Part shown: positions 4,959-40,331 of the stretch, piece after piece
Position numbering within the stretch: the stretch's first letter is position 1
How the letters are laid out: the number at the start of each line of letters is the position of its first letter
Assembly (NCBI GenBank): GCA_020349245.1
Contig: CP070764.1
Span: 777,446-833,463 of the forward strand
Origin: Chloroflexota bacterium
GTDB taxonomy: Bacteria > Chloroflexota > Anaerolineae > Anaerolineales > UBA4823
DNA length: 56,018 bases
Reading direction: 5' to 3'
The notes under the pieces: generated by a model
What the model was told of the DNA's origin: nothing
Databases searched by the model: none
What the model saw: the letters and a program-made list of their open reading frames with translations, nothing else
Made by a program: the position numbers and the translations under genes

Positions 4959-5015
4959 CGCCCGATTTCACCAAGAATGATTCGTCCGCAGCTAAATGAT
5001 CTCCCTCAATATTTT

Positions 5016-5050
5016 GACCAATCTAAATTTTATCATAGACAAATCTAAAT
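5016..5050 (-). promoter_or_regulatory. Putative promoter of the efflux operon: extended -10 (TGATAAAAT) flanked by a 13-bp direct repeat
   Basis: GACCAATCTAAAT (5016-5028) and GACAAATCTAAAT (5038-5050), period 22 bp. Minus-strand TG-A-TAAAAT lies between them, about 70 bp upstream of the permease start. Confidence 0.4.
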
Positions 5051-5446: not shown

Positions 5447-7132
5447 ATGAACTACGCAGAAAAGCCTTGGCTGAAGAGCTACAAATTGGGGCCATACAAA
5501 CTGGAGCAGAGTCTGGCACCTTATCCACTTGAACCAGTATACAAAATACTCGATCAAGGGGCAGAAAATCACCCTGGTCAGACAGCGATCTTCTACCTTG
5601 GCAGGAGTATAAACTACAGCCAATTGAAAAGGCGCGTCGACAAATTGGCCGGAGCACTGGCCAGGCTTGGGGTGGAAAAAGGCGACCGGGTATGTGTCTA
5701 CCTGCCGAATTGTCCAGAATTTATCATCAGCGATTGGGCTATCCAGAAAGCCGGCGCGGCAATCGTCCCCACCAGCATCCTGCGCACGGCAGAGGGTCTG
5801 CTGCACGAGGCCAGCAGTTCAAATAGCAAGGTCATCATTTGTCAGGAAAGGAACCTGGACCTCGTCCTGGGCGTAAAGGATCAATGCGATCTTGCAGAGG
5901 TCATTGTCACCTCGAATAATGGTTATGATCTCGAAGCTGTATCCGGCAGCTTGCCAAAGCATGGGCATGATTTCCGGGAACTCATAAACGAAACCGATCC
6001 AATCCCCCCGCAAGTGGAGATCGATCCCCAGGAAGACCTCTGCGAATTATCCTTCACTGGCGGTGCAACCGGGACACCCAAAGGGGTCATGATCACCCAT
6101 GCCAACCGTCTGAGCTGCATCCACCAGAGCCTGCCCTGGGTGCTGAAACCCCTGATCCATGGTTTCGCGGGTAAAGCCTCGGTGTTGATCGCCATCCCCC
6201 TCTTCCATTCCTACGGTCACTTCACCCAGCAATCTTCCGCCCTGCTGGGGCTGCGCATCCTGTTGCTGCCCGATCCCAGGGATTCAAACCTGATGATCGA
6301 GTATATAGAGAAATACCGACCTCTGTTTATCCCGGCAGTTCCCACGCAGCTGATGCGCATCGCGGATGCAGAGCTCAGCCGCATGAACTCCCTGCTGTGG
6401 AGCGGCGCAGCCCCCTTGCCGATCGAGGTTGGGCAGGCGATCAAGCGCAAAATCGGTATGCCGGTTTCACAGGCCTACGGATTGACGGAAACCTCGCCGG
6501 TGACTCACTTCAACGTATCCTCCTTCTCCAAGATCACCGGCTTCATGGCCAAGGAGAAATTCGGGATCGGCATACCAACCCCGGATACGGAATGCCGACT
6601 GATCGATATCGATACCGGTGAAGATGTCCCTGCCGGCAAACCAGGGGAGATCGTGGTCCGCGGCCCACAGGTGATGAAAGGCTACTGGCCAAAACCCGGT
6701 TCCGGGCTCACCCCGGATGGATGGCTGCATACCGGGGATATCGGAACGATGGATGAAGACGGGTATTTCCAGGTTGTCGACCGCACCAAGGACATGGTCA
6801 ACGTCTCCGGTCTGAAAGTTTACACCAACACGGTAGATGAAGTACTCTATGAACACCCGGGGGTGCTGATGGCTGCTGCCTTCGGAGTGCCCGACCCGGA
6901 GAATCCTTCCAGTGAACGGGTCATGGCGGTGATCCAGCCGAAGAAAGATTACCGGGGAACCATCAGTGAGGCGGAAATCAGAGCATTCTGCCAGGAAAGA
7001 CTATCCCCGTACGCGGTGCCAAAATTCATCGAATTCCGGGACGACATGCCGCTCACGGTGACCGAGAAAGTTTACAAAAAAGCGCTGCGAGAAGAAGTTC
7101 TGCGCAGGATGGAAAAGGATCTTACCCGGTAA
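5447..7132 (+). CDS. Long-chain acyl-CoA ligase / AMP-binding enzyme (FadD-like)
   Basis: Adenylation motifs FTGGATGTPKG, QAYGLTETSP, GEIVVRGPQVMKGYW, WLHTGD, VDRTKDM. Confidence 0.92.
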   Translation: MNYAEKPWLKSYKLGPYKLEQSLAPYPLEPVYKILDQGAENHPGQTAIFYLGRSINYSQLKRRVDKLAGALARLGVEKGDRVCVYLPNCPEFIISDWAIQKAGAAIVPTSILRTAEGLLHEASSSNSKVIICQERNLDLVLGVKDQCDLAEVIVTSNNGYDLEAVSGSLPKHGHDFRELINETDPIPPQVEIDPQEDLCELSFTGGATGTPKGVMITHANRLSCIHQSLPWVLKPLIHGFAGKASVLIAIPLFHSYGHFTQQSSALLGLRILLLPDPRDSNLMIEYIEKYRPLFIPAVPTQLMRIADAELSRMNSLLWSGAAPLPIEVGQAIKRKIGMPVSQAYGLTETSPVTHFNVSSFSKITGFMAKEKFGIGIPTPDTECRLIDIDTGEDVPAGKPGEIVVRGPQVMKGYWPKPGSGLTPDGWLHTGDIGTMDEDGYFQVVDRTKDMVNVSGLKVYTNTVDEVLYEHPGVLMAAAFGVPDPENPSSERVMAVIQPKKDYRGTISEAEIRAFCQERLSPYAVPKFIEFRDDMPLTVTEKVYKKALREEVLRRMEKDLTR

Positions 7133-23497: not shown

Positions 23498-24955
23498 TTA
23501 GAAGGCTGATATGGCAGCCTGATAAGCCCAATTTAATAAGGGTAGGGAAAACACTCCCAGGAGTATCATTCCTATTCCAGTAACAGCAGCGGTAAGGTAG
23601 AGCCAATTATCCCTTTCGACCTCTGGTTCACCATCGTGCATATACATGAATATCACAACCCGCAAATAGTAATACGCCGAGACCAGAGAAGTGAGCACCC
23701 CAATGATCGCCAGCCAAACAAATCCACCATCGATCACGCTGCGAAAGAGGTAAAACTTACCGATGAAACCCAATGTGGGTGGTATCCCGGTGAAAGAGAG
23801 CATCGAGACAGTCATGATAGCGGCTAAAATGGGGTACTTACGGCCCATCCCGGCATAATCGCTGAGCTGCAAACCCCTCCCCTCAGTCTTCTCCAGAGCG
23901 ATCACCACAGCCCAGGCTGCGAAGCTCATGAAAGCATATGCCAGTAAGTACAACAACGCGGCCGCAATTGCGTCATCAATAACTGCTTCTTGGCCATATG
24001 GAACCAGAGCCATAAGGATATACCCTGCCTGGGCGATGCTCGAGTAAGCCAGCATGCGTTTGATATTCGTTTGGGCAATCGCGACCACATTCCCCAGGAT
24101 CATCGTCAAGGCAGCTAATCCCCAAAGAACGTTGGTGAAGTCGATCGCCAGCACACCAAACGAAGTGACAAATAAGCGCATCAAGGCGGCAAAGCCACCG
24201 ACTTTCGCACCTACTGCCATAAAAGCCGTTACCGAGGAAGGCGCTCCTTGATAAACATCCGGGGTCCACATGTGAAAGGGGACCGCGGCAACCTTGAAAC
24301 CCAGACCAACGAGGATCAAAGCGCCGCCAACAGCCAGCAAAGACAGGTCAGCACTGCCACTCTGAATGGTTTGGAGAACATTGTTCAATCCTGTGTATCC
24401 GGTTGCCCCAAATATAATTGCGACCCCATATACAACAAATCCACCAGCAAAAGCACCCAACAAGAAGTATTTGATCGCTGCCTCTTCAGAATCCGAGCGT
24501 GGTCGGGCAAAACCTGCCAAAACGTAGAGAGGGATCGAGAGCAGTTCCAAAGCCAGGAAAATTACAATCAGGTCCGCGGCCATCGCCATCAAGACCATCC
24601 CGCTGATCGAGAACATCAACAGCACATAGTACTCCCCCCGCTGGATTCCCAATCGAGTCAGGTATTCATATGAGAGCAGGATGGCAACCACGCCGCTGGT
24701 CAGGACCAGTATGGTCAGGAATTGAGAGAAACCATCTACCACCAGCATTCCCCCAAATGCTTCGACATCAACACCAGATTGAGCGATCGTGAAGCCCGTG
24801 GTGACCAGCAAACCAGCTGCCGCCAGAATCGCAGTCCATGCCTTGCGGTCTTTCGGAATAAATAAATCCACCAACAGGAGTACGCTTGCCCACAGGATAA
24901 GAATACTCAGTGGCAGGATTTTTATCAGGTTGGCAGTTAATTCTCCCAGTGTCAT
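23498..24955 (-). CDS. nuoN: NADH-quinone oxidoreductase subunit N
   Basis: EAAIKYFLLG, FKVAAVPFHMWTPDVYQGAP, NIKRMLAYSSI, GIPPT.GF.GK; last gene of the operon. Confidence 0.96.
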   Translation of the reverse strand: MTLGELTANLIKILPLSILILWASVLLLVDLFIPKDRKAWTAILAAAGLLVTTGFTIAQSGVDVEAFGGMLVVDGFSQFLTILVLTSGVVAILLSYEYLTRLGIQRGEYYVLLMFSISGMVLMAMAADLIVIFLALELLSIPLYVLAGFARPRSDSEEAAIKYFLLGAFAGGFVVYGVAIIFGATGYTGLNNVLQTIQSGSADLSLLAVGGALILVGLGFKVAAVPFHMWTPDVYQGAPSSVTAFMAVGAKVGGFAALMRLFVTSFGVLAIDFTNVLWGLAALTMILGNVVAIAQTNIKRMLAYSSIAQAGYILMALVPYGQEAVIDDAIAAALLYLLAYAFMSFAAWAVVIALEKTEGRGLQLSDYAGMGRKYPILAAIMTVSMLSFTGIPPTLGFIGKFYLFRSVIDGGFVWLAIIGVLTSLVSAYYYLRVVIFMYMHDGEPEVERDNWLYLTAAVTGIGMILLGVFSLPLLNWAYQAAISAF

Positions 24956-24974
24956 TTAATCCTTCTTTCGGTCA

Positions 24975-26486
24975 TCATGGCAGTCCAGCCATCGCAGCAA
25001 CCTGAATCGACTCGACCAGTTTTGCGACAGATGCTTCCATCAAATTGAAGAATGGTGAGGGATACAAACCAATCCAGAATATGAGCACCAGCAATGGAAC
25101 CAAGGTGATGATTTCCCGCAGATTCATGTCTAAAAGTTTGCGGTTTTCTTCCTTATCCACTGGCCCGAGGAATAATTTTTGGAACATATACAGCAAGTAA
25201 ATTGCCGCCAAGATCACCCCTACAGCTGCCAGCGCTGCGTACCAGGGATTGTTGAGAACTTTAGAACCAAATGCGCCAAGCAAGATCGTGAACTCACCGA
25301 CAAAACCATTCAAACCTGGCAATCCCATGGAGGACAAGGTTACGATCAAGGTCAAAACAGCATAAACTGGCATCACCTTCCATAACCCACCGAAGGCATC
25401 CATATCGCGGGTATGTCGTCTTTCGTAGATCATGCCGACGATTAGAAACAATGCGCCAGTGCTGATCCCGTGATTGATCATTTGTAGAATGCCACCCTCC
25501 ACACCTTGTGCGTTGATGGCAAATAAGCCCAGCATGACAAAACCCAGGTGGCTGACAGATGAATATGCCACCAATTTCTTGACATCTTTCTGGGCATAGG
25601 AGACCATCGCGCCATACAGGATGCCAATTACCGCCAGTACGGCAATCCAGGGAGCAAGTTGAACTGAGGCTTGGGGGAACATCGAGAGATTAAAACGCAG
25701 GAAGCCGTAAGTACCCATTTTCAACAAGACACCCGCTAGGATCACTGAACCTGCTGTTGGTGCTTCCACATGTGCATCCGGCAACCATGAATGCAGCGGC
25801 CACATTGGAACCTTGATGGCAAATGCGGCAGCAAATGCCAGGAAGAGCCAAATCTGGATATTCCCGGGTATTGAGGCATTTGCGACCAATTCTGGTACCG
25901 AGAACGTCCCCTGGCTGATCCCCAGCCACAGGATCGCCAGCAGCATTAAGATCGAACCCGCCATCGTATAGAGGAAAAACTTGACTGCAGCATAAACGCG
26001 ATTTGGACCTCCCCAGATACCGATCAAGAAATACATCGGGACAAGCGTGAATTCCCAGAAAATATAGAACAAGAAAAGGTCCAAGGAGAGGAAAACCCCC
26101 ACCATGCCAACTTCCAACAACAGGAAGAAGATCATGAATTCCTTGACCCTTTCCTCAACCGCAGTCCAAGTAGAGAGGATCGATATCGGCGTCAGGAATG
26201 TGGTCAAGAGCACCAGTAAAATGCTCATCCCATCGATTCCCATTAAATATGCGATCTCCCAGCCTGCCACCTTTATCCAGGGAATATCGACCACCATTTG
26301 AAGATCTGGATCAGCCGGATTGAAAAGCACCATCACCCATATGGAAATCCCGAAGGTGATCAACGAAGCAATTAATGCTATCCAGCGGATGGCTGTTTGT
26401 TGTTCCCGGTTAATGAACAGGATCAGCAAAACACCCAGCAGGGGGAAGAACGTGACCAATGTAAGGGGGTGAAGCAAGAAGTCCAT
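24975..26486 (-). CDS. nuoM: NADH-quinone oxidoreductase subunit M
   Basis: FYIFWEFTLVPMY, KFFLYT, KVPMWPLHSWLPDAHVEAP, LLKMGTYG, GLPGLNGFVGE. Confidence 0.96.
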   Translation of the reverse strand: MDFLLHPLTLVTFFPLLGVLLILFINREQQTAIRWIALIASLITFGISIWVMVLFNPADPDLQMVVDIPWIKVAGWEIAYLMGIDGMSILLVLLTTFLTPISILSTWTAVEERVKEFMIFFLLLEVGMVGVFLSLDLFLFYIFWEFTLVPMYFLIGIWGGPNRVYAAVKFFLYTMAGSILMLLAILWLGISQGTFSVPELVANASIPGNIQIWLFLAFAAAFAIKVPMWPLHSWLPDAHVEAPTAGSVILAGVLLKMGTYGFLRFNLSMFPQASVQLAPWIAVLAVIGILYGAMVSYAQKDVKKLVAYSSVSHLGFVMLGLFAINAQGVEGGILQMINHGISTGALFLIVGMIYERRHTRDMDAFGGLWKVMPVYAVLTLIVTLSSMGLPGLNGFVGEFTILLGAFGSKVLNNPWYAALAAVGVILAAIYLLYMFQKLFLGPVDKEENRKLLDMNLREIITLVPLLVLIFWIGLYPSPFFNLMEASVAKLVESIQVAAMAGLP

Positions 26487-26564
26487 AGCTTGTCCTCGTT
26501 CTGAAGTTAGTCACAGCCTTTTTGAAATGCTTCTATTCCGTCCAGGAAAAGAAAGCGGGCTTGT

Positions 26565-28661
26565 TTAGCGTAAAATCAGATAGCCAATAATGACGACCAC
26601 ACCAAGTAATACCGATAATGCGTAGTTCCTGACATAACCGGTTTGAATTTTCCGCAGGCTGCCGGCAATGCGTACTGTAACCCTGGCTATGCCATTGGCG
26701 ATACCATCAATGAAGCCCAGGTCAAATGCACCCGCCAGGAACCTCGCTGACACTTTAAATCCACGGGCAATAACACTGTCGTGGAACCAGTCGTGCCAAA
26801 AACGCCAATCAACTGTTTCTGCCAAGAAATGAGATATCCGCACATAAGGATTCAAAATGATTGCTGAATATAACTCATCCACCCACCACTTGTTTTCCAT
26901 CCCGGTAAATATGGGTCCAAGCCATTGCCGCAGTGGATCGTCAGGTCTTTTTGCCGGCGGTAGATCCTGCAGCTGCTTGTATCGCCAGCTGTAAACGGCC
27001 CATGACAAGAAAAGGCCGAAGGCTGCAACCAGTGTGGCGACAATGGCGGTGACAATATTGAACTCAACGGGATGAATGGTCGTCACCGTGTGTTCGAGCC
27101 ATTCAGCAAACGAGTGCAGCCGCGGCAGGTTCAGAGTACCACCCACAGCAGAGAAGAATGCCAGCACGATCAGAGGTACCGTGATTAATGCCGGATTCTC
27201 CTTGGCGTGTTCAGTAGCTTCTGAGCGAGATTTCCCAAAGAAGACCATCAATACCTGCCTGCCCATGTAAAAAGCGGTCAGGAATGCTGCAAATATTAAA
27301 ATCCAATAGGCGGGCGGGAAGAGCATCTGCTCCTCCAAGAGGATCTCATCCTTCGACCAGAAGCCGGCAAAGGGAAAAATACCGACCAGAGCCAGGGAGC
27401 CAATTAAATAAACCCAAAAAGTTGTTTTCATCCGGGTGCGCAATCCACCCATGTTGCGCATATCTTGCGGGTCGAATTCGGTTCCCCCTTTCTTACCTTT
27501 GCTATTATGCTCCAAGTGATGGTGACCATGCTCAATTCCCAGGATCACAGAACCTGCACTTAAAAAGAGCAAAGCCTTGAAGAATGCGTGTGTGACCAGG
27601 TGGAACATCCCCGCTGCATAGGCACCAATACCAACTGCGGCGACCATGAAACCCAGCTGGCTTATCGTCGAATAAGCTAAAACCTTTTTTATATCAAATT
27701 GCCCCACGGCGATGGTGGCAGCAAAGAGCGCCGTAATCCCACCAACCAAGGCAACAATATCCTGGGCTTGCTGCACTGTTTCGTAAAGTGGAAATGAACG
27801 GGTGATCAAATACACACCAGCGGTAACCATGGTGGCAGCATGGATCAATGCCGAAACGGGCGTGGGACCTGCCATGGCATCTGGCAACCAGACATAGAGG
27901 GGGATCTGGGCTGATTTCCCCGCCACGCCAACAAGCATGAGCAGGGTGATCGCCAAGATGACAGATTCTGACACTTGTGCGGATTGGGCAAATACCTCTC
28001 CAAAATTCAAGGAACCGAAAGCCCCAAACATGATAAAAATGGCGATCAGCATACCAAAATCGCCAACACGGTTGGTGATGAACGCTTTCTTCGCTGCCAG
28101 GGCATTTCCGATGCCATCCTTCCCTTTCTCGAACCAAAATCCGATCAGCAGGTAGGAACACAAACCAACACCTTCCCAGCCCACAAAAAGCATCAGGTAA
28201 GAATCCGCGCTAACCAGGACCATCATGGCTGCGATGAATAAATTCATATAAACGAAGAAGCGCCTGTATCGCCCCGGATCGCCTTGAAAGCGCACATCAT
28301 CATGCATGTAACCAATCGAGTAAATGTGGATTAACGTTCCGACTCCAGCCACGACCAGCATCATCGTCACGGAGAGCGTGTCAACTTGAAATGCCCATTC
28401 GATCTGCAATTCACCGATACTGATCCAATCCACCAGGGGAACGATCACTTCTTCCGGATGGTTTAGTAAGGAAACACCTAATATCACGGCAACAAGGAAT
28501 GTCAGGCCTGCTGCAATACTGGCGATCCACCCGATGGCTTTCTCCCCTAACCACTTACCAAAGATGATATTGAACAGCAACCCGATCACTGGAATAAAAA
28601 CAACCAGGGGAACGAGATTGAAGAATGTAGGTCCAGATGCAGCTGTTTCGCTCAGGAACAT
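26565..28661 (-). CDS. nuoL: NADH-quinone oxidoreductase subunit L, with a lengthened lateral amphipathic helix
   Basis: GWEGVGLCSY, NRVGD, KSAQIPLYVWLPDAMAGPTPVSALIHAATMV, HAFFKALLFL, QTGYVRNYA. Confidence 0.96.
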   Translation of the reverse strand: MFLSETAASGPTFFNLVPLVVFIPVIGLLFNIIFGKWLGEKAIGWIASIAAGLTFLVAVILGVSLLNHPEEVIVPLVDWISIGELQIEWAFQVDTLSVTMMLVVAGVGTLIHIYSIGYMHDDVRFQGDPGRYRRFFVYMNLFIAAMMVLVSADSYLMLFVGWEGVGLCSYLLIGFWFEKGKDGIGNALAAKKAFITNRVGDFGMLIAIFIMFGAFGSLNFGEVFAQSAQVSESVILAITLLMLVGVAGKSAQIPLYVWLPDAMAGPTPVSALIHAATMVTAGVYLITRSFPLYETVQQAQDIVALVGGITALFAATIAVGQFDIKKVLAYSTISQLGFMVAAVGIGAYAAGMFHLVTHAFFKALLFLSAGSVILGIEHGHHHLEHNSKGKKGGTEFDPQDMRNMGGLRTRMKTTFWVYLIGSLALVGIFPFAGFWSKDEILLEEQMLFPPAYWILIFAAFLTAFYMGRQVLMVFFGKSRSEATEHAKENPALITVPLIVLAFFSAVGGTLNLPRLHSFAEWLEHTVTTIHPVEFNIVTAIVATLVAAFGLFLSWAVYSWRYKQLQDLPPAKRPDDPLRQWLGPIFTGMENKWWVDELYSAIILNPYVRISHFLAETVDWRFWHDWFHDSVIARGFKVSARFLAGAFDLGFIDGIANGIARVTVRIAGSLRKIQTGYVRNYALSVLLGVVVIIGYLILR

Positions 28662-28743
28662 GGATTAGCTCTCCAAGTCAGCCAAAATGATGATTCGATC
28701 AAAAATCCTAATCAATATTTCCAAACCGGTCCGAGTATCCTGC

Positions 28744-29043
28744 CTATTGCTTCAATTCATTCAGCTCGTCGACGTTAATGCTCCGCTTGGTTTTGAAGAT
28801 AGCTACGATCAATGCTAATCCCACGGCCACCTCTGCAGCGGCAACTGTGATCACAAAGAAAACCAGCACCTGCCCATTCAATGACTCATGAAGTTGGGAA
28901 AAGGCAACGAATGCTAGATTTGCCGCATTGAGCATCAATTCCACCGACATGAAGATAACGATAGCGTTTCGCCGGACCAAAACTCCCAGAGCACCGATCG
29001 TGAATAAAATTGCGGAAAGCACGAAGTAATATGAAACTGGCAT
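28744..29043 (-). CDS. nuoK: NADH-quinone oxidoreductase subunit K
   Basis: [26 protein letters not shown]. Confidence 0.96.
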
Positions 29044-29103
29044 TTCCTGTAGCTCCCGTAGGTTATGAACTTTCCAGATGAAACAATTTACAAATCACTG
29101 GAC

Positions 29104-29622
29104 TCATGATTTTTGATCCTTGGTCAGCACGATTGCACCAATCATCGCCACCAATAAGAGCACCGAGGTAATCTCAAACGGCAGCAGATATTCATTGAAC
29201 AACAATAAACCAATATCTGTCGGACTAGCATATCCGGAACTCAATGTGCCAAATCTCGGGAGTATCCCCTGCTGAAATCCAAGGGAATAAATAATGTAGC
29301 CGGTTTCGACGAGCAAAACTACGCCGAGTAGAATTGCAACCGGTCGTTGCCAGGGGAGATTTTCATCCTGGCGCAATTGTTCAGCACCCAGGAGCATGAT
29401 CACAAATAAGAATAAAACCATGATCGCTCCGGCATATACGGTAACCTGGGCCATAGCCAGAAATGGTGAACCCAGTAATAGAAAAAACACAGCAATAGTG
29501 GCGAAATTGATGACCAGGAAGAGGGCAGAATAAACAGCATTCCGGCTGAGTAGCATGCTGAAAGCAGAAGCAATTGCCACCACCGCTAATAAAATAAAGA
29601 GTATGAAGTCAGAAGTCATCAT
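29104..29622 (-). CDS. nuoJ: NADH-quinone oxidoreductase subunit J
   Basis: VYAGAIMVLFLFVIMLL, YLLPFEITSVLLLVAMIGAI. Confidence 0.96.
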   Translation of the reverse strand: MMTSDFILFILLAVVAIASAFSMLLSRNAVYSALFLVINFATIAVFFLLLGSPFLAMAQVTVYAGAIMVLFLFVIMLLGAEQLRQDENLPWQRPVAILLGVVLLVETGYIIYSLGFQQGILPRFGTLSSGYASPTDIGLLLFNEYLLPFEITSVLLLVAMIGAIVLTKDQKS

Positions 29623-29658
29623 TCACCCGATTTTTCATAGAGTTCCAAAGCACCAAGA

Positions 29659-30168
29659 TCAATCTGTGGGATCCAGCATCACAGGAATAGAGCGATCAAA
29701 TTTACCCGGCTCAACTTGCTGAGGAGTTGGTTTCCCAGTTTCCGGTACCGGAACAATCAATCTTTCCTTGGTATAAATCGCGCTTTCCCGATTGGTAAAA
29801 GATAGTTCGTAATTATCACCCAGGATGATCGCTTCCGTGGGACAGGCATCTTCACAATAACCACAGAAAATGCAGCGCAGCATGTTGATTTCGTACGTGC
29901 TGGCATACCGTTCACCTGGAGAAAACCGCGTTTGATCTGTGTTTTCGGAAGATTCAACAAAAATCGCATCCGCTGGACAGGCTGCTGCACATAATGCACA
30001 TCCAATGCACTTTTCTAATCCGTTCTCGTAGCGGTCCAAGAAATGCCTTCCTTTAAACCGCCGGGTGACCGGTAACTTATGCTCAGGATATTGGACCGTG
30101 ATAGGCTTTCCGAACATCGCCTTGAGCGTGGTCATTAAACCCCGAGCAAGGCCAACAACTGCACTCAT
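29659..30168 (-). CDS. nuoI: NADH-quinone oxidoreductase subunit I
   Basis: TVQYP; two 4Fe-4S motifs CIGCALCAAACP and CIFCGYCEDACP. Confidence 0.96.
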   Translation of the reverse strand: MSAVVGLARGLMTTLKAMFGKPITVQYPEHKLPVTRRFKGRHFLDRYENGLEKCIGCALCAAACPADAIFVESSENTDQTRFSPGERYASTYEINMLRCIFCGYCEDACPTEAIILGDNYELSFTNRESAIYTKERLIVPVPETGKPTPQQVEPGKFDRSIPVMLDPTD

Positions 30169-30170
30169 TC

Positions 30171-31175
30171 CTAACCTCCAATCAATACCAATACAACTGC
30201 AGTGAGGAACACGTTCGCCAGAGCGAGCGGTAATAAGAACTTCCAGCCGAACGCCATCAAGCGATCGTAACGCAATCGCGGTAGGGTCGCCCGGAGCCAG
30301 ATAAGGACGAACAGCAGGACCATGATCTTGAAAAACAGATAGAAAGGTCCCAAAATGGGAACCTGGTCAACAAAAGGTCCCTGAAAACCACCCAGGAATA
30401 GGGTGGCACCAATGGCACAGACAGCGATCATCTTGACATACTCTGCCATAAAAAACAGGGCGAATTTCATTCCCGAATATTCAGCGTGGTAACCAGCGGT
30501 CAGCTCTTGTTCCGCCTCTGGCATATCAAATGGTGCCCTGTTCACTTCGGCCACTGAAGCCACGAAGAAGATGATCGCGCCAAGCGGTTGGTAGACGATA
30601 AACCAGATTGGCTTCTGAGCTTCAACGATGCCCATCAGGCTCATCGTCTCCGCGATCAGGATGGGGCCGATCAGGGCAAGACCTAGAGCCAGCTCGTAGC
30701 TGATCATCTGGGCAGATGAACGCAAACCACCCATCATGGCATATTTGTTATTTGACGACCAACCTGCCATGACAATTCCATAAACCGAAATCGAAGCGAT
30801 TGCAACCAGGTATAGCACGCCAACATTGATATCGACGAGATATAGGGGAATTTCTCGACCAAATACGACGATCTGCGTCCCCCAGGGGATCACGGCGAGG
30901 ATCACCAGGGCCGGAAACACGGTAACCATCGGGGCTAATATAAAAACGATCTTGTACGCCTGTGCAGGGATCAATTCTTCTTTAAAGATTAGTTTGATCC
31001 CATCAGCCACCGGCTGGAGCCAGCCTGAAGGCCCAGCCCGGTTGGGCCCAATGCGCACCTGTATCCGGGCTAACGCCCTGCGCTCATAAAAAGTAAGGTA
31101 AGCAAAGCCGGTGACACAGAAAAGGAGGATGACAACGGCCTTTACGATCCACTCGATAATCAGCAAATAATCCAT
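30171..31175 (-). CDS. nuoH: NADH-quinone oxidoreductase subunit H
   Basis: R.GPNR.G..G.LQPVADGIKLIFKE, AQMISYE, NRAPFDMPEAEQEL..GY..EYSG, LPRLRYD. Confidence 0.96.
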   Translation of the reverse strand: MDYLLIIEWIVKAVVILLFCVTGFAYLTFYERRALARIQVRIGPNRAGPSGWLQPVADGIKLIFKEELIPAQAYKIVFILAPMVTVFPALVILAVIPWGTQIVVFGREIPLYLVDINVGVLYLVAIASISVYGIVMAGWSSNNKYAMMGGLRSSAQMISYELALGLALIGPILIAETMSLMGIVEAQKPIWFIVYQPLGAIIFFVASVAEVNRAPFDMPEAEQELTAGYHAEYSGMKFALFFMAEYVKMIAVCAIGATLFLGGFQGPFVDQVPILGPFYLFFKIMVLLFVLIWLRATLPRLRYDRLMAFGWKFLLPLALANVFLTAVVLVLIGG

Positions 31176-31187
31176 GGAACCATCCTG

Positions 31188-33725
31188 TTATGTCACGACC
31201 TGTTCGACAAGCTTTATTTCGACCGACATCGGTTCCCGAATTGGCAAGCCCATGCTGCGCGGCGATAAAACCACACCTTCCTGGATTGTTTCATCGAGAC
31301 GAGCAACAACCTCATAATCAAAGTCCAGGCAATGGAGATGAATACGATCGCCATCCTTTATGCCCAGGTGAGCCACCGATTCCGGGTGAATGATGATGAA
31401 GGGTTCAGGGATTCGTCGATGCAGCAATTCAGCAGTCATGACCGTTTGTCCACGGTCGTAGAGAATTGTGATGGGATATGCAGTGAGTTCATCTCCCTCA
31501 CCCGGCAGGGCATCTCCAGGTTGCACTGCTGACAAGGAAACCGGCTGGCCTTTTTGGGATGCCGGTGGGACCTGATAACCTAGGCCTTGAGAATTCTCAT
31601 AGGAAGTACCACCGTAATATAAATCACTGCGACCGATTATTGGCCACTGTTCAGCCACAGCGGAAATTTTCCCATATGAGACTTCTGCATAATCGGGGAT
31701 TTGTCCAGCAATTTGATCCATGATGCGGATCGGGTGCCTATCCTCAAGGTCAATCCCGGCCAACCTGCTGATCTGGGCAGTGATGGCAAAATCTGGACGA
31801 GTTTGCGGGCGTGGAGGAATCCCGGCGTAGAAGCGCTGTACTCGCCGCTCAGCATTGGTGAAGGTCCCTTCCCGCTCAATAAATGTTTTGGCTGGTAGGA
31901 CAACGTCCGCCAATTTCGCTGTCTCGGTTAAATAGATGTCCTGGACAAGAACGAAACCAGCGGATTGAATCGCTTCAGCCAGTTTCGGATTATCACCAGC
32001 AGGATCTGCTGCTGCGATATAGATTGCTTGCTTTGTGGTCAAAACCTCATTCAGGTTTGGGACGGGTTGAAAACCCATATCCCAGGCACCCTGAGTATTT
32101 CCACGCGGCCATACCGGGATCAAACCATTATTGACCTTACCGATGTGCCCCGTGCTGATCAATAGATTCGCACATGCCTGGGCGAGCTGCTGGGATGATT
32201 CGAAGCCGGTCCCCTCACTCCCATAGAAGATGAGCACATTTTCCGCCTCGACAATTTCCTTGGCTGCGGACTTTACCTCCTGGGAGCCTCCAAGTTGGTT
32301 AAATTTATCCGTAAGCTCGACCCTTTTCTTAGATAGTGCATTGGTCAGTGCAATCACCAAGGCTGCTTCCCCTCCGTACGGATAACGGAGGACATGGCTG
32401 GCTGAACGATCAGTTTTCGTGTGCCGGGGATTGGCGACGATCAATTTGGCACCTCGTTCAGCTGCCTGTTTGACTCTCAGCCAGTAAAGGGGGGCTTCTT
32501 CTTCCAAATCAGAGGCGACAACCAGGATGGTTGATTCTGGTCCCAGGTCTGAGAGATTTGTTCCCTGGCTGACTCCAACTTGGGCAACCAGGTCCCCGCC
32601 TGCCATTTCAGAAAGAAGCGCTGAACTACCTCCCAAGTGCTTGGATAACGCCTGCAGATTAAACAGATCTTCATTTGAGATCCGCCCGCTGACCAAAGTC
32701 AGCAGATCCGAGCCGGCCTCTTTTAATTTGCTGGCTGCTATTTTGAGGGCATTGTCCCAGGTTGCCGGGGTTAATTCTCCGTTTTCTTTTACTAGGGGCT
32801 GAATCAACCGATCTGGACTGCTGGTGTAATGGTGGGCAAAGCGACCTTTATCGCAAATCCAGATTTCATTCACAGCCTCATTCTGTCGGGGCAGGACTCG
32901 CTTGACGACGAAATCACCGCCAGTTTTGTGCTCCCGGCGGACATTCAAAGTCAGATTGCACCCAACGGGGCAGTGCGTACAGATCGAGGCAACCGCCTTC
33001 ATCTCCCAAGGTCTTGCCCCAAAGCGAAAATCGCTAGTTGTTAGAGCTCCAACAGGGCAGATATCTGTCGTGTTTCCCGAGAAATATGAATCGAAACCAG
33101 GTTCAGAATACGTCACAATTCTTAAAGATCGACCACGCTGTTCGAAGCCAATGACTGCATCATCCACGATCTCATCCTGAAAACGAACACAACGACCGCA
33201 CTGGATACAGCGCTCGCGATCGAGGAAAATCAATTCACCAAGTGGATAATGCTTCTCAAAATGGATTTTTTCATCATACAGGAAACGGCTCTCACCTGAT
33301 CCAAAATCCATGGTCAGGTTCTGCAGCGGGCACTCGCCACCCTTGTCACATACCGGGCAGTCCAAGGGATGCGAGGTGAGCAAGAATTCAATAACATCCT
33401 TTCGAGCACGGGCGACTTTATCTGATATACCGCGTACAACCATTCCCTCCGAGACGACTACCGTGCAGCCAGTCTCCAATTTTGGGGCAAACTGGATTAC
33501 ATAACTACCATCCTCATTACGTTCCAGCTCACCGGTTTTACGGCTCATCTGCGGTCGGCCGATCTCGACCAGACACATGCGGCACATCCCCACCGGCTCC
33601 ATCTTGGGATGATAACAAAACACCGGGATATCCACACCTGCTTTTTTGGCAGCATCCACAACCAGCGTACCCGGGGGCACCTGGACTTCTAATCCATCTA
33701 TCACCACACTTATCAGTTGACCCAT
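31188..33725 (-). CDS. nuoG: NADH-quinone oxidoreductase subunit G
   Basis: FCYHP..CRMC...C (N1b), HPLDCPVCDKGGEC (N5), CIQCGRC...CP (N4), CTHCPVGC...CDKGR (N7). Start set at MGQLIS after GGAG. Confidence 0.95.
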   Translation of the reverse strand: MGQLISVVIDGLEVQVPPGTLVVDAAKKAGVDIPVFCYHPKMEPVGMCRMCLVEIGRPQMSRKTGELERNEDGSYVIQFAPKLETGCTVVVSEGMVVRGISDKVARARKDVIEFLLTSHPLDCPVCDKGGECPLQNLTMDFGSGESRFLYDEKIHFEKHYPLGELIFLDRERCIQCGRCVRFQDEIVDDAVIGFEQRGRSLRIVTYSEPGFDSYFSGNTTDICPVGALTTSDFRFGARPWEMKAVASICTHCPVGCNLTLNVRREHKTGGDFVVKRVLPRQNEAVNEIWICDKGRFAHHYTSSPDRLIQPLVKENGELTPATWDNALKIAASKLKEAGSDLLTLVSGRISNEDLFNLQALSKHLGGSSALLSEMAGGDLVAQVGVSQGTNLSDLGPESTILVVASDLEEEAPLYWLRVKQAAERGAKLIVANPRHTKTDRSASHVLRYPYGGEAALVIALTNALSKKRVELTDKFNQLGGSQEVKSAAKEIVEAENVLIFYGSEGTGFESSQQLAQACANLLISTGHIGKVNNGLIPVWPRGNTQGAWDMGFQPVPNLNEVLTTKQAIYIAAADPAGDNPKLAEAIQSAGFVLVQDIYLTETAKLADVVLPAKTFIEREGTFTNAERRVQRFYAGIPPRPQTRPDFAITAQISRLAGIDLEDRHPIRIMDQIAGQIPDYAEVSYGKISAVAEQWPIIGRSDLYYGGTSYENSQGLGYQVPPASQKGQPVSLSAVQPGDALPGEGDELTAYPITILYDRGQTVMTAELLHRRIPEPFIIIHPESVAHLGIKDGDRIHLHCLDFDYEVVARLDETIQEGVVLSPRSMGLPIREPMSVEIKLVEQVVT

Positions 33726-33807
33726 ACTCGCTCCATCTTTTGTGACAATAACATTGAGAGCGTATTCTTCAAACAACCAGATTAATCAAATCGCTTGTAA
33801 TCTTTGG

Positions 33808-35079
33808 TTATTCTGTGTTTGAATTCTCCTTGACCTTGGACTTGAAATCAGCCTCAAACCGCTCGAGCCCGGAAGTAACCGCTTCGATAGAAAATTCACC
33901 AAGGGCGCAGAGACATTTACCTTTAATTTGCAGGGCTACTTCGTTCAGCAATTCAACATCCTTCCAAGATGCGTCTCCGCCATGAACTCGGTCGATAATA
34001 TGGCGCATCCAATATGTTCCTTCCCGACATGGAGTACATTTTCCACAAGATTCATGACTGAAGAAGTGCAGCGTTTTGTGGAGGACCCAATCAATACCCA
34101 CCGAATCGTCAATTACGATCACAGATGCAGATCCCAGGGCGGCACCCAGGTTGGGCACACTTTCATAATCCATGGGAGTATCGAGAGCTTCTTCATTGGC
34201 AATGATCAGCGAAGATGAAGCTCCGGCAGCCATGATGGCTTTGATCTTTCTTCCATCGGGGATGACGCCGCCATGCTCAAAGATCAATTCCCGGAAAGTG
34301 GTCCCCAGAGGCAGCTCGTAATTACCGGGCTTATTCACCCGGCCTGATAGGCTGAATATCTTAGGACCAGTGCTTTTTTCAGTTCCAATCGACGTATACC
34401 ATTTCACGCCGCGGGTAATGATCAGCGGTACATTGGTCAGCGTCTCTACATTATTGACCACAGTGGGTTTTCCATACAACCCATACGAAGGCGGGAACGG
34501 GGGACGTAATCTGGGCTGACCCAGTTTACCTTCCATTGACTCAAGCAGGGCGGTTTCTTCGCCGCAGATATATGCACCTGCTCCGAGGTGGGTGAAGATC
34601 CGCAAGGAATACTCGGTACCAAAGAGATTTCCGCCCAATAATCCAGCGTCTTCCAGCTCTTTGATCTGCTGATCCAGCTTGGCAGCGATCTGCCAGAACT
34701 CACCTCGCAAGTAGACGTATGCTTCATTGGCCTGGATCGCAAAGGCAGCCAGAGCAACCCCCTCCAGGAATTGAAATGGGTTGCCTTCCATGATCTCACG
34801 GTCCTTGAAGGTCCCTGGCTCAGATTCATCCGCATTTGCCACGACGTAGTGCGGCCAATTCTCATTGTCGATGAATGTCCATTTCAATCCCGTTGGAAAG
34901 CCCGCGCCGCCCCTACCACGCAGCCCAGAGGATTTCACTGCATCCGTAACATCATACGGATTCATGCTTGTGACTGCTTTGTGGAATGCTTCAAAACCAC
35001 CATGCTGACGATAGATATCCAGCTGGTTCAAATCTGGTATTTGGCGATGGCGCAGCAAGATAAGTTCATTCATCGTCAT
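33808..35079 (-). CDS. nuoF: NADH-quinone oxidoreductase subunit F
   Basis: GLRGRGGAGFPTG.KW, NADESEPGTFKDR, GAGAYICGEETAL, ESCGKCTPCREG. Confidence 0.96.
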   Translation of the reverse strand: MTMNELILLRHRQIPDLNQLDIYRQHGGFEAFHKAVTSMNPYDVTDAVKSSGLRGRGGAGFPTGLKWTFIDNENWPHYVVANADESEPGTFKDREIMEGNPFQFLEGVALAAFAIQANEAYVYLRGEFWQIAAKLDQQIKELEDAGLLGGNLFGTEYSLRIFTHLGAGAYICGEETALLESMEGKLGQPRLRPPFPPSYGLYGKPTVVNNVETLTNVPLIITRGVKWYTSIGTEKSTGPKIFSLSGRVNKPGNYELPLGTTFRELIFEHGGVIPDGRKIKAIMAAGASSSLIIANEEALDTPMDYESVPNLGAALGSASVIVIDDSVGIDWVLHKTLHFFSHESCGKCTPCREGTYWMRHIIDRVHGGDASWKDVELLNEVALQIKGKCLCALGEFSIEAVTSGLERFEADFKSKVKENSNTE

Positions 35080-35570
35080 GCATCCTGCTTTCGGAAGGTT
35101 TCGATCACTTTCAAAGCGCTGTCCATGGTCTGGTTCTCGTAATAAGATATACCCTCAGGGGATTGCACCTGGAACATCGGTGCTCGATCGCAAGCAGCCA
35201 AGCACATAACCGCTTCAACTGTCACCGACCCGTCTGCGCTGGTGCCACCCACTTTTACACCCAGATTCTCACACAGCTGCTCCAGGAACTCATCAGACCC
35301 CCGCAATGCACAGGGGAGATCATTACAGACCTGTACCCGAATTTTCCCTCCAGGATGGTCATGGTAAAGCGTGTAGAAGCCAACAACTGAAGCCACGTCA
35401 GTCGGGGTAATGCCCAGGATTCCACCGATCTCAACTATATCCTCTTTGGTGATATAGCCTCCCTCTTGCTGGGCTAGATACAACAAAGGCATCACAGCCG
35501 AACGTTTTTGATCAGGGGGATACTTGGCTAATATGACCTCAATTTCTGCGGCGTATTTTTCAGCTATCAT
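35076..35570 (-). CDS. nuoE: NADH-quinone oxidoreductase subunit E
   Basis: FYTLY, VCNDLPC, CLAACDRAP 2Fe-2S ligands. Confidence 0.95.
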   Translation of the reverse strand: MIAEKYAAEIEVILAKYPPDQKRSAVMPLLYLAQQEGGYITKEDIVEIGGILGITPTDVASVVGFYTLYHDHPGGKIRVQVCNDLPCALRGSDEFLEQLCENLGVKVGGTSADGSVTVEAVMCLAACDRAPMFQVQSPEGISYYENQTMDSALKVIETFRKQDA

Positions 35571-35588
35571 GTTCCCTCAAATCGAGCA

Positions 35589-36818
35589 TCAACGATCAAT
35601 ATCTCCAAGAACAAAGTCGGTGGTTCCAATCAAAGCGACTAAATCTGCTACCAGGTGACCCTTCGCCAGAACAGGCAAGATCTGAAGATTATCAAAGGAA
35701 GGTGTCCGCCAATGGACCCGGTAAGGTTTGGTTCCGCCATCACTTTCCAGATACACTCCCAGGACACCACGCGGGGATTCAGTGGCCGCATAAACGGAAC
35801 CTTTGGGCATTTCATAGCCTTCCGTCCACAGCTTGAAGTGATGGATGACAGCCTCCATGCTGGTCCCAAGCTCAGACCGCGGGGGTGGGACAAACTTGCG
35901 GTTGTTGCTACGAACAGGTCCATATGGCAGCTTGTCTAAAGCCTGTTCCACGATGCGCAGGGACTGCCGCATCTCCTCCATCCTTACCAGGTAGCGTGCA
36001 TAGGTATCACCATCGGTATGGGTTGGGATCTCAAATTCGTACTGCTCATAACCTATATAAGGGTGAGATTTCCTAAGATCTTGTTTTACCCCTGAAGCGC
36101 GCAGCATCGGTCCGGTGACACCATAATGGATCGCCTCCTCCACCTTGAGAATTCCCAGGCCCTTGGTCCGATCGATAAAAATCGGATTCTCATTTAACAT
36201 GCCTTCGTATTCACTGATCCGCTTGGGAAAGGTCTTGATAAATTCTCGGACTGCACCTTCGAACTCCACTGGAACATCCCGCCAAAGACCCCCGGGGCGG
36301 AAATACGTGGTCATCATCCGCTGGCCTGAAACCATCTCGTTGATATCCAGAATCATTTCCCGTTCGCGAAAGGTGTACCAGAAGACGGAGATTGCAGCCA
36401 GGTCCAAGGTATGGGTTCCCAGCCAAACCAAATGTGAGGCGATCCGCTGCAGTTCGGTGAGGATCACCCGGATTGCCTGAGCCCGCTCTGGCACATCCAA
36501 ATCTGCCAGCTTCTCGATCGCCATGCAGTAGACCAAGTTGTTGCCGAGGTTGTTAAGGTAATCCAGCCTGTCCGTCATCACTGCAGCTTTCTCATACGAC
36601 TTGGCTTCCATATTCTTCTCAATCCCGGTATGCAGGAAGCCAATATCCGGAAAACAATTCACAACGATCTCGCCATCCAGTTCGAGCAGTAAACGCAGTA
36701 CTCCATGGGTGCTGGGGTGCTGAGGGCCCATATTCAGCAGCATGGTTTCGCCTTTTATGGCTCGTTCAGAAACCAGATGTCGCAATTCTTTGAATGCAAA
36801 TTCTGATTGATCTAACAT
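35589..36818 (-). CDS. nuoD: NADH-quinone oxidoreductase subunit D
   Basis: NMGPQHPSTHGVLR, DRLDY, ESPRG, C-terminal GDIDR; no NiFe CxxC. Confidence 0.96.
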   Translation of the reverse strand: MLDQSEFAFKELRHLVSERAIKGETMLLNMGPQHPSTHGVLRLLLELDGEIVVNCFPDIGFLHTGIEKNMEAKSYEKAAVMTDRLDYLNNLGNNLVYCMAIEKLADLDVPERAQAIRVILTELQRIASHLVWLGTHTLDLAAISVFWYTFREREMILDINEMVSGQRMMTTYFRPGGLWRDVPVEFEGAVREFIKTFPKRISEYEGMLNENPIFIDRTKGLGILKVEEAIHYGVTGPMLRASGVKQDLRKSHPYIGYEQYEFEIPTHTDGDTYARYLVRMEEMRQSLRIVEQALDKLPYGPVRSNNRKFVPPPRSELGTSMEAVIHHFKLWTEGYEMPKGSVYAATESPRGVLGVYLESDGGTKPYRVHWRTPSFDNLQILPVLAKGHLVADLVALIGTTDFVLGDIDR

Positions 36819-36827
36819 AAATTTAAC

Positions 36828-37346
36828 TCACTCTTTAGCGTAAGGTTTATCCCGGTCAATTTCTTCAGCATTGAAAGAGAATTGCACCTCTTCATAACCC
36901 AAAGGATAATCCTTGCGCAGTGGATGTCCCTGCCAGTCATGCGGCATCAGTATTCGCCGCAAGTCTGGATGACCTTCAAAGTGTATGCCAAACATATCCC
37001 AGATTTCCCGTTCCCGCCAATTTGCATTAGCATACAATTCCACAACGCTCGGCATACTAGGAGATATCCCGGATACAGGAACACGTATGCCAACCCGCAG
37101 ATGTCCCTCGATGGCATAAAGCCAATAAACCACATGAAAACGCGGTTCTTCCTGAGGCCAATAATCGACCGCGGTCATGACTTCCAGGAAGGTAAAACCA
37201 AATTCGTCGCGCAGTGTTCGACAAATTTCAACAATGTCTTCTCTGGAGACAATGAAACTGGTCTCTCCCCGGAATTCCAGGATTTCCACCTTAAAATGCT
37301 CTGCTAAATTGGAGGAAATGTTCTCAAGTTTATTATTCATGGCCAT
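36828..37346 (-). CDS. nuoC: NADH-quinone oxidoreductase subunit C
   Basis: [34 protein letters not shown]. Confidence 0.96.
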
Positions 37347-37359
37347 TTACCCAAGCCTT

Positions 37360-37842
37360 CTATGCCCAGGATTTCAGGGATTCACCGCGCACTTTTTCGT
37401 GCAGCGTTAAAATTCCATGCACCAGTGCTTCCGGTCTTGGTGGACATCCAGCAACATACACATCAACCGGCATGATTTCATCAATACCCTGCACGATGGC
37501 ATAGTTGTTGAAAACACCGCCACAAGAGGCACAATCGCCCATCGAAACCACCCACTTCGGATCAGGCATCTGATCGTACAGCAACCGCAAGACGGGGGCC
37601 ATTTTCCGGGTGACGCGTCCGGAGATGATCATCAGATCGGATTGGCGCGGCGTTGCACGCATCAATTCCATGCCGAAGCGGCTCATATCGTGCTTGGCTG
37701 CTTGACCAGCCATCATTTCAATGGCACAACAGGCCAGCCCAAACAACATCGGCCACATGGCATAAGTACGCGCCCAATTTACAGCTTGCTCAAGGCGCAA
37801 GGTTACTGCGCCTAAATCACCTGCTTTCTGTTCTATTCCCAT
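37360..37842 (-). CDS. nuoB: NADH-quinone oxidoreductase subunit B
   Basis: [42 protein letters not shown]. Start at MGIEQK, overlapping the end of nuoA. Confidence 0.96.
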
Positions 37843-38189
37843 TCCAATGCTCCTTTCTTCCAAGCATAAACATATCCAACCAATAAAATCAAAATGAAGA
37901 TGAGCATTTCGATTAATCCAAATAAACCCAACTGTCGGTAGGCAACCGCCCAAGGGTAAAAGAAAATCACCTCGATGTCAAAAAGGATGAATAACACAGC
38001 CACCAGGTAAAATCGGACTGGCAGACGGCGAGTTCCTGGTCCAATCGGGGTCATCCCCGATTCATACGGCTGAGACTTGCGACTAGTGGGACGCCGGGGG
38101 CCAAAGGCGTGACCAAGCACAACGACTAAACCCGCCAGCAAAACAGCAAGGATAAATAAGATGGCAAGTGGTAAATAATCGAAAAGCAT
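37833..38189 (-). CDS. nuoA: NADH-quinone oxidoreductase subunit A
   Basis: [32 protein letters not shown]. Start set at MLFDYL. Confidence 0.95.
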
Positions 38190-38318
38190 AAGACATTCTC
38201 TGCGACTTAAAATAGTCAGGGGTAGTCGTATACCCCAAACTATCCTAACACCCTGGAAACCAGGGCTGATAATTTTAAGGAACGCCACCCCAGCCTTACC
38301 TTCTCAAAAAACTCACCT

Positions 38319-38372: not shown

Positions 38373-40331
38373 TCAATTTCTGCCGTTAATTATAGCCTTA
38401 ATATCAAAGATATACACACCTTCCTGTTCATAAACCAGCTCGATGCCAGCACAATTCTCAAATTGATCCGGTTGAATTGTCCCTTTATTTTCTGTCAGAT
38501 AGATGTGAGTCAAAGATTCCGCCGCTACCACCTGCCAAAATACTTCATTACAGCCTTCGATCTGGGTAACCAAATCAGCTCCCTGGTTTATATGGCTGAC
38601 ATAGGCTTGTTCTCCCATTCCATATAAGCCGTTCGGCAGGATCGCTAGCCTACTTGAAAGTGGGGTGATCCACCAGCCCCCATCCACTCCCCGGTAGTTA
38701 CCATACTGCCAGTGGGTTACATTTATCAAGAACCGGGCTTCCTGGGGCAGATGACGATCAATCCAATTGATCGCCTGCAGGTCTGCATCGCCTGCTAAAA
38801 TAGTTGCAGAATTGATCACCGTGCGCGTTTCCCACAAGCCCCAGGTGAGGAGTGCTCCAATAACGATCAAAATCAGTACCGTCTTCAGTGGCGCGATTTT
38901 GGCTGTCTGCCGCCAATCCACAGCACTGAGAAGGAAATCAGAAATTAGCATTGCCGTAGGGAGGAATAAGATGATTACCGCGTGATCGGGTCTGAAAGGT
39001 GCAATGTAAATTCCCACCGGCAAACTGAAAATGATCAGGGCGAGCGTCCATAATCCGAAACTACGGGTGCGCTGTCGTACCAAGGAGAGGACCAACCCGG
39101 GCAAAGCAGCGAATAATAGCACATGATTGCGCGTGGGACCTAATAAACGCCACAGGTAATCAAAATACTGCGGAAAATATAATCGATCCACCGCTTCCAA
39201 AGTTGGTTGAATGGAAACCAATTTAACCCCACCCTGAGCAAATCCCCACATGCGGTAAAGCCAGGGAGCCGCCATTATCAAACTGAGCAGGGTTGCCAAT
39301 AACACGGGCAACCAGGTAGTTCTCCCAGAAAATGCTTTTGCGCGGAAATCTCTAACCAAACTGAGGATGAAGACGATGATGAGAAAAGCCGCCAGCAACA
39401 AGCCAACATAATAATGCGCTAAGAGGATGCCAGCTGTAACCACGCTCAGGCTGAGCAGGCGCGATATTTTCTTCCCTTTGTTGAGGATATCCAGAACGAG
39501 TCCCATGGCAAGGGGTAGAAGCACCATCCCGGTTAATAATGTATAGCGCCCCCAGGTGAGGTAGTATGCAGGCATCTGGGTGACAAAGCCGACGAGGAGT
39601 GCACTCAACACCGCTCGACGCCAGTCAGCCCACAGGGCTTTGCCAAGCCTATAAACTGCTAATGCTATCGCAGCGTTGAGGGCTTGTCCCAGGTAGAGAA
39701 CAGCATCTTGGCTACTTTGGCCGGAAAATTCCCTGAAGACTGCTGTCAGGGCATGAAATGCATAATGGTAATAAAACGGAACTGGCATATACGGTTCGAA
39801 CGTTTTCGGTAAACCCCCGTTTTCCCCGATCAGGCTCACAATTTGAACATGGTGGACCGAGTCCACCCACAACGGGAGGACAACATCCTGGATTTGATAA
39901 AACCGCCAGGCAAGGATAGCCATGAAAGTTAGACCAAGAACGAGACAGGGCATCCAGGTTAATGGAGCTGATCGCCAGCTGGTTGCAGACCTGGAAAAAA
40001 CCTGCCCGGATCCGGGGTATCCAGCAACATGAACACCCCACTGTGCACGAGAAGAGCGATCTAACCACCATCGTCTTATACCCCAAATCGCGGGTGGAAC
40101 CAGCAAACAGTACAAAACCAGCAAGGTGATGGAAGAAACCTGCCAACCAACTAGATAGGCATACAAAGCAAATATACTGGTAGCCGAGATGCTAATCCCG
40201 AGGATATCGCCGAGGCGCTCAAACGCGTCCTGTTCCGGATCCCAAAATAAAACCAGCCAGGCCAAGCCTGGCAGGAAAAGCACCATAACCCCGGTAAAGA
40301 GGGTCCAGGTGGTGGAAAGGATGGATGTCAT
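38373..40331 (-). CDS. Polytopic membrane protein, GT-C glycosyltransferase-like (DUF6541-like)
   Basis: More than 12 hydrophobic segments; loop motif PLWVDSVHH; YHYAFH; WGRYT; soluble C-terminal domain (AINWI..LP...FL.N). Family call is tentative. Confidence 0.55.
   Translation of the reverse strand: MTSILSTTWTLFTGVMVLFLPGLAWLVLFWDPEQDAFERLGDILGISISATSIFALYAYLVGWQVSSITLLVLYCLLVPPAIWGIRRWWLDRSSRAQWGVHVAGYPGSGQVFSRSATSWRSAPLTWMPCLVLGLTFMAILAWRFYQIQDVVLPLWVDSVHHVQIVSLIGENGGLPKTFEPYMPVPFYYHYAFHALTAVFREFSGQSSQDAVLYLGQALNAAIALAVYRLGKALWADWRRAVLSALLVGFVTQMPAYYLTWGRYTLLTGMVLLPLAMGLVLDILNKGKKISRLLSLSVVTAGILLAHYYVGLLLAAFLIIVFILSLVRDFRAKAFSGRTTWLPVLLATLLSLIMAAPWLYRMWGFAQGGVKLVSIQPTLEAVDRLYFPQYFDYLWRLLGPTRNHVLLFAALPGLVLSLVRQRTRSFGLWTLALIIFSLPVGIYIAPFRPDHAVIILFLPTAMLISDFLLSAVDWRQTAKIAPLKTVLILIVIGALLTWGLWETRTVINSATILAGDADLQAINWIDRHLPQEARFLINVTHWQYGNYRGVDGGWWITPLSSRLAILPNGLYGMGEQAYVSHINQGADLVTQIEGCNEVFWQVVAAESLTHIYLTENKGTIQPDQFENCAGIELVYEQEGVYIFDIKAIINGRN

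Follow-up and report, generated by a model that had tools for sequence, protein, structure and literature searches.

The proton stoichiometry of complex I (4 H+ per 2 e-) is usually read from its gene content. The locus described here poses the question of how many pumps such an enzyme carries when genes and protein architecture give different counts. It lies in a 56,018-nucleotide stretch (the window) of a Chloroflexota genome of the order Anaerolineales (assembly GCA_020349245.1, contig CP070764.1, positions 777,446 to 833,463). Here, a complete nuoA-N operon occupies positions 23498-38288 on the minus strand, and each of its 14 open reading frames (ORFs) matches its own Pfam family. The genes specify three pumps, yet the lateral, or strap, helix of NuoL is one 29-residue module longer than in solved enzymes and would by its length point to four pump positions. 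The features concerned are listed below. Coordinates without a prefix are window positions, while the prefix G000:C1 denotes the contig of the same genome. NuoL of the window operon is called L1, its NuoM M1, and NuoL of a second cluster elsewhere in the genome L2 or NuoL2.

26565..28661, minus strand: nuoL, an ORF of 698 aa with PF00361, PF00662 and PF06455; best PDB matches are NuoL/ND5 chains
26643..26879, minus strand: lateral (strap) helix span D595-Q673, 79 residues by translation; a single helix (591-669) in the AlphaFold2 (AF2) model
26808..26879, minus strand: segA, the first helix module (residues 595-618) and template of the duplication, from a profile comparison with the insert
26721..26807, minus strand: insert of 29 residues (619-647), made up of a 24-residue copy of segA behind a 5-residue linker; missing from short sister orthologs; pLDDT 87-67 in the AF2 model
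26571..26633, minus strand: TM16 (transmembrane helix 16) anchor helix, residues 677-697, a helix in the AF2 model with canonical sequence
24975..26486, minus strand: nuoM, 503 aa, PF00361 (272 bits); the sole nuoM of the operon
23498..24955, minus strand: nuoN, 485 aa, PF00361 (240 bits)
28744..38288, minus strand: nuoA-B-C-D-E-F-G-H-I-J-K, one Pfam family per ORF

Translation of the strap from the D of (KWWV)DELY through the Q of QTGY reproduces the 79 residues given in the original prediction, which was made from the DNA sequence of the window. E. coli K-12 NuoL covers the equivalent stretch with 46 residues, in line with the 46-50 given there; hand counts on alignments give 49 for both M. 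smegmatis and T. elongatus NdhF, and 51 for Paracoccus. Compared with its short sister orthologs (L011, L023, L026 and L123), the window NuoL differs by exactly residues 619-647, a net insertion of 29 residues. What defines 2M complex I (Chadwick, Hemp, Fischer and Orphan 2018, ISME J 12:2668) is a longer NuoL together with an additional NuoM (PMC6606698), and its NuoL lateral helix is described as longer by a module of about 26 residues (in PMC6606698, PMC7117926 and PMC9040806, which cite Chadwick et al. 2018). The window NuoL shows such a lengthening (79 residues versus 50 in the short sisters and 46-52 in canonical enzymes). The increment also resembles that in NuoL2 of the same genome (span 78) and in a true L-M-M-N locus, L065 (span 75).

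The length of the lateral helix is quantised family-wide, at about 50, 75-80, 101-103 and 130 residues. Among 75 NuoL ORFs drawn from 80 related loci, 55 have a span of 49-52 residues and 20 one of 75-80; L082, a frameshift artefact, and L089, with a loop-like insert, were dropped from this set. A broader sample of 133 cluster representatives (the best 150 minus 10 under 560 aa and 7 without anchor columns) gave spans of 48-53 in 91, 75-80 in 38, 101-103 in three and 130 in one. The three-module representatives are P0083, P0116 and P0126, and the four-module one is P0110.

The extra segment had been proposed to be an internal duplication, and shuffle tests back this. Compared with segA as a single sequence, the insert reaches a local score of 24, equalled by 44 of 5000 shuffles; with a profile of 31 orthologs the score rises to 27.5, which none of 2000 column shuffles reached. 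The score against the last segment of the strap (segB) was reached by 918 of 5000 shuffles for the single sequence and 18 of 2000 for the profile. The insert is a tandem copy of segA with a 5-residue linker, and it carries a conserved motif, DW(R)FWHDWFH(D/E), which is the best-conserved stretch of the strap. In a hydrophobic-moment scan the insert repeats the amphipathic pattern of segA, a pattern that does not tell the models discussed below apart. The unit doubled in NuoL2 and L065 is a different, segB-type module starting xxV(I/V)DGxVN. Because these proteins double another module, the L1-type insert probably arose separately, in a duplication event of its own.

The lengthened strap is a trait of a whole clade within the Anaerolineales and Anaerolineae. 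We pooled related loci and regions of relatives and merged pairs at least 98% identical, which left 46 distinct L1-type NuoL. Their spans are 79 residues in 31, 80 in ten, 78 in one and 50 in four, with none between. In the 42 long proteins the mean pairwise identity is 0.50 for the insert, compared with 0.53 for segA, 0.43 for segB, 0.64 for TM16 and 0.66 for the core. In NuoL trees computed without the helix columns, the short orthologs L011, L023 and L026 form one group nested within long clades (SH-aLRT, the Shimodaira-Hasegawa-like approximate likelihood ratio test, 97, 99 and 96), so the insert has been cleanly lost at least once. The base of the clade, with the fourth short protein (L123), L2, L031 and Thermoflexus, is unresolved in the tree.

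The lengthening is not accompanied by an additional pump gene in the operon. As the original prediction had it, ORFs and Pfam agree on a single nuoM in the window, with gaps of 78 bp between nuoL and nuoM and 19 bp between nuoM and nuoN, and with one PF00361 gene only between nuoL and nuoN. The survey of relatives found the same combination throughout the ortholog clade: all 36 long-helix L1 operons in which nuoM and nuoN are visible read L-M-N, and none has a second nuoM. A pump gene hidden between nuoL, nuoM and nuoN of relatives was considered and rejected, as these gaps hold unrelated ORFs only. In the nuoL-M-N region, L018 has small toxin-antitoxin-like pairs (L018:2821-3373 and 4920-5532), L017 an inserted 300-aa ORF (L017:13012-14131), and L032 a 3.2-kb block with ORFs of 269 and 761 aa (L032:13733-16914). 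In a genome of the same genus (L099, G007:C1:458400-467000) the nuoM after nuoL breaks off at 282 aa, and additional M- and N-like fragments are found 1.6 Mb away at G007:C1:2053357-2055343, reflecting a rearrangement or an assembly error.

Whether the additional module requires an additional subunit depends on where the helix ends. An AF2 monomer model of NuoL, built from a 64-sequence alignment (predicted local distance difference test, pLDDT, 88.6), shows residues 591-669 as a single unbroken helix, with TM16 next at 677-697. If helical, the insert adds about 43 Å of helix length. In canonical enzymes, TMH16 is described as lying beside ND2 and ND4L, with TMH4 of ND6 at that interface (PMC8762328); PMC8357420 and PMC13073174 held nothing on TM16 docking. 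The TM16 consensus of long L1 is nearly identical to that of 39 canonical NuoL. Identity of TM16 to these 39 proteins is 0.394 for long L1 (ratio to core identity 0.78), 0.337 for short L1 (0.66) and 0.348 among the canonical proteins themselves (0.63). At equal core divergence, TM16 identity is 0.596 in long-long pairs and 0.459 in long-short pairs. Because TM16 retains the canonical sequence, its dock in long L1 is most likely the usual one, next to NuoN, NuoK and NuoJ. If the dock is unchanged, a straight strap that is 43 Å longer would need a spacer. Foldseek searches with the model retrieved NuoL/ND5 chains at E ~1e-38, with root-mean-square deviations of 11-13 Å for full chains and 2.8-3.0 Å for entries with fewer modelled residues; this contrast fits a displaced TM16 and is not a measure of reach.

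Quantised lengths, purifying selection on the insert and the canonical TM16 together argue for a fourth pump-sized position. With TM16 at the canonical site, the strap would bridge a further unit of pump size between NuoL and NuoN. The most economical occupant would be a second copy of the same NuoM, since none of the orthologous operons holds an extra pump gene, and the complex would then be L-M-M-N built from one gene. This is our leading reading of how the extra position is filled, and we hold it tentatively, at less than even odds. In solved complexes, the length of the lateral helix (HL) is described as scaling with the number of antiporter-like subunits, from one in MBH and two in Mrp and MBS to three in complex I (PMC8165549). 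Extending this to the present family, helix length would act as a ruler that sets the NuoM copy number, and the clean 29-residue deletion of the nested group would return the enzyme to L-M-N. In its full form, the ruler model would make this one-nuoM operon encode a five-pump L-M-M-N NADH dehydrogenase, place the module duplication before the nuoM duplication that yields a true 2M enzyme, and let the nested deletion toggle to four pumps without any change in gene content. We regard this complete scheme as rather unlikely. The original observation of a 2M-length helix over a single nuoM is thus confirmed, with 79 residues and one PF00361 gene between nuoL and nuoN, while the explanation offered for it is only partly supported.

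A number of points weigh against a second NuoM copy. Contact between two NuoM copies is hypothetical. The docking argument for TM16 is one of sequence conservation, and an AF2 monomer cannot show the path of the helix within the complex. The pLDDT of the model, at 82-88 over most of the insert, falls to 51-67 past residue 640. No PDB sequence aligns through the two-module helix, and hence no solved complex has a two-module strap. Shine-Dalgarno strength differs little among the three genes (nuoL -6.4, nuoM -5.9 and nuoN -6.0 kcal/mol), so it gives no hint of a double NuoM dosage, and no stronger translation start was found on nuoM. Energetically, the step from NADH to menaquinone is too weak to drive 5 H+ per 2 e- at an ordinary proton-motive force. 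Finally, two genomes of the same order carry nuoA-H-J-K-L-M-N clusters in which NuoL has a three-module strap with a span of 103 (L129:5846-13530 in G058, 96% complete; L130:4591-12386 in G085, 94% complete), and nuoL, nuoM and nuoN are their only PF00361 genes genome-wide. The number of modules therefore need not track pump genes, and the ruler idea would demand three NuoM copies in these enzymes. A complex prediction with two NuoM copies (residues 1-498 each), run without controls, scored 0.00 and weighs neither way.

Several of these points fit the main rival explanation, in which the strap is simply a longer brace and the complex stays L-M-N. The additional module could form a kinked surface excursion, reach further along the arm or contact another partner or a neighbouring complex, with a role in stability or assembly rather than stoichiometry. 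The three-module straps of G058 and G085, with only three antiporter genes per genome, agree with this, as do the energetics of NADH-to-menaquinone transfer and the ribosome-binding site of nuoM, which is no stronger than its neighbours'. Long straps over one nuoM also recur in the unrelated lineages L042b (span 75, cluster A-B-C-D-H-J-K-L-M-N), L052b (span 76, L-M-N) and L125. The last of these (L125:6004-7983, minus strand, in the Anaerolineales genome G025) has an E. coli-like NuoL with a clean 24-residue tandem repeat of segA, a span of 70 versus 46 in E. coli, and an L-M-N operon. In addition, a conserved Gly lies near the middle of the insert, where segA has a helix-kinking Pro. However, the length of the L1 strap is fixed at 78-80 without intermediates over deep divergence, which a slack loop would not need. 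TM16 retains its canonical docking sequence, AF2 models the insert as an unbroken helix, and a true loop-type insertion looks unlike it, as the 16-residue insert of L089 is rich in Gly, Pro and Asp. On balance we judge a longer brace to be somewhat unlikely, though a serious contender. Much the same evidence bears on the neutral relic that the original prediction had allowed for, in which an ancestral L-M-M-N enzyme lost nuoM2 while the insert persisted. L2 and another long NuoL do fall near the unresolved base of the L1 clade, and the insert has been lost in one subclade. Yet none of 36 L1-type operons carries two nuoM, and since L2 and L065 show a segB-type doubling instead, the segA duplication probably has its own origin. 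Conservation of the insert matches that of the adjoining helix, and its motif is the best conserved part of all. Since the length is fixed (42 of 46 at 78-80) with no sign of decay, the insert changes no faster than other parts of the helix, and the sole other state is a clean return to 50, a relic is disfavoured and very unlikely.

The remaining explanations would place the gene for a fourth unit elsewhere in the genome, which is a single contig of 4.5 Mb with eight PF00361 genes: three in the window, four in a second cluster and one orphan. The second cluster (G000:C1:3737097-3746336) reads nuoA-H-J-K-L2-M-M-N, with an L2 of 723 aa, NuoM proteins of 523 (M2a) and 491 aa (M2b; together G000:C1:3741822-3744878) and a NuoN of 485 aa. 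It is complemented by a set of nuoB, a fused nuoCD (580 aa) and a nuoI-like gene near 3.842 Mb (~3841500-3844460), followed by an Mrp/NUBPL-type Fe-S ATPase; loci L091 and L095 cover the two parts. The Chloroflexi 2M arrangement is described as nuoL-M-M-N with nuoB, fused nuoCD and nuoI encoded apart (PMC7117926). The second set has this arrangement and lacks nuoE, nuoF and nuoG of its own, whereas in the window operon nuoB, C, D and I stand in line and unfused. The genome-wide search thus did find two further nuoM, as the original prediction had considered, but inside a complete and separate 2M set with its own long NuoL2. The original prediction held that a second nuoM elsewhere would refute double use of M1; by that criterion such genes would count against double use, although relatives show no link between helix length and that cluster.

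M2a or M2b could in principle be built into the 14-subunit enzyme, as the second cluster is present and complete, and most genomes of the order hold both sets (seven strong PF00361 matches are usual among 81 genomes at least 90% complete). However, the 2M cluster has exactly the pumps that its own NuoL2 needs, and identity to M1 reaches no more than 44% for M2a and 36% for M2b. In G041 a short L1 coexists with both the 2M cluster and the orphan. Conversely, in G015 (5 contigs, 95% complete) an intact long L1, a single M, a single N and the orphan are the only PF00361 genes. Its congeners G097 and G107 have seven PF00361 matches each and hold the cluster, which makes its absence from G015 either a recent loss or a gap in the assembly. 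Strap length is thus not tied to the presence of the 2M cluster. G044, G046 and G058 moreover combine a long strap and one nuoM with no spare nuoM. Supply in trans appears improbable on these grounds. Even less probable is that another membrane protein holds the position, for example the orphan, a 466-aa antiporter-like protein (G000:C1:508894-510294). It is a distant PF00361 member (54.6 bits) whose best PDB match is NuoN (E 1e-8), and it is present in G015. However, it is equally present with short L1 in G041, G042 and G043, is absent from G058 and sits in its own conserved three-gene membrane cluster. We rejected it as the fourth unit, as its presence does not track helix length. The cluster (G000:C1:508894-512462, minus strand; L090, with ortholog L093 in G015) also encodes proteins of 523 and 197 aa without Pfam or PDB match.

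How does the window enzyme, for which a second copy of M1 remains our leading reading, compare with known systems? With canonical 14-subunit complex I (E. coli, T. thermophilus, M. smegmatis, P. denitrificans) it shares the 14 genes, the NuoL core fold and TM16. Like canonical NDH-1 it has all 14 core genes in a single operon, but in place of a one-module lateral helix over three antiporter-like subunits (span 46-51) its NuoL has two modules. With 2M complex I, in which a fourth antiporter-like subunit is proposed to add a fifth proton per cycle, it shares a lengthening by about one module at the same position of the helix. It differs in having no second nuoM, a full NADH module (nuoE, F and G), unfused nuoC and nuoD, and an insert that copies segA rather than the VIDGxVNG-type module doubled in L2 and L065. 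The same contrasts separate it from the 2M set of its own genome, co-resident in most genomes of the order, which has two nuoM, no nuoE/F/G, a fused nuoCD and another duplicated module at nearly the same span (78 versus 79); the two NuoL proteins are 49% identical.

The closest precedent is found in another phylum. Complex_I_1 and Complex_I_2 of Candidatus Manganitrophaceae (Nitrospirota) are described as having the canonical genes in canonical order, although their NuoL carries an HL insertion (Yu et al. 2022, mBio, PMC9040806). The authors call the insertion 'curious' and suggest that these complexes may be able to take extra pumps or may be in evolutionary transition. The window operon likewise combines canonical genes with an HL insertion, a likeness in gene content and in the presence of an insertion. 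In the present case the trait could be followed across an order: 42 of 46 proteins are long, with one nested loss and a defined duplication unit. In our literature search, which did not extend to Chadwick et al. 2018 itself, PMC9040806 was the only paper found on HL insertions in one-nuoM clusters.

Two further features of the locus were observed. Residues 376-400 of NuoL (window ~27462-27536, minus strand) form a His/Lys-rich loop that starts EHGHHHLEH and has no counterpart in E. coli NuoL; in the AF2 model, residues 387-399 are coil (pLDDT of the block ~74-75). Directly upstream of nuoA lies a 652-aa ORF (38373-40331, minus strand) with no Pfam match at E 0.001 or better.

Taken together, particular to the window operon are a full 14-gene operon of the NADH type with an independent segA-type duplication carrying its own conserved motif, its order-wide retention with one clean reversal, and the co-residence of a true 2M set. 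Should a single nuoM product indeed serve twice, pumping capacity could not be inferred from operons, and counts of helix modules would be the better predictor. If there is no extra pump, the 'lengthened NuoL' criterion for calling 2M complex I in genomes and metagenomes would be unreliable alone. Either way, the 79-residue orthologs and their 50-residue sisters, with identical gene content, provide a natural on/off pair.

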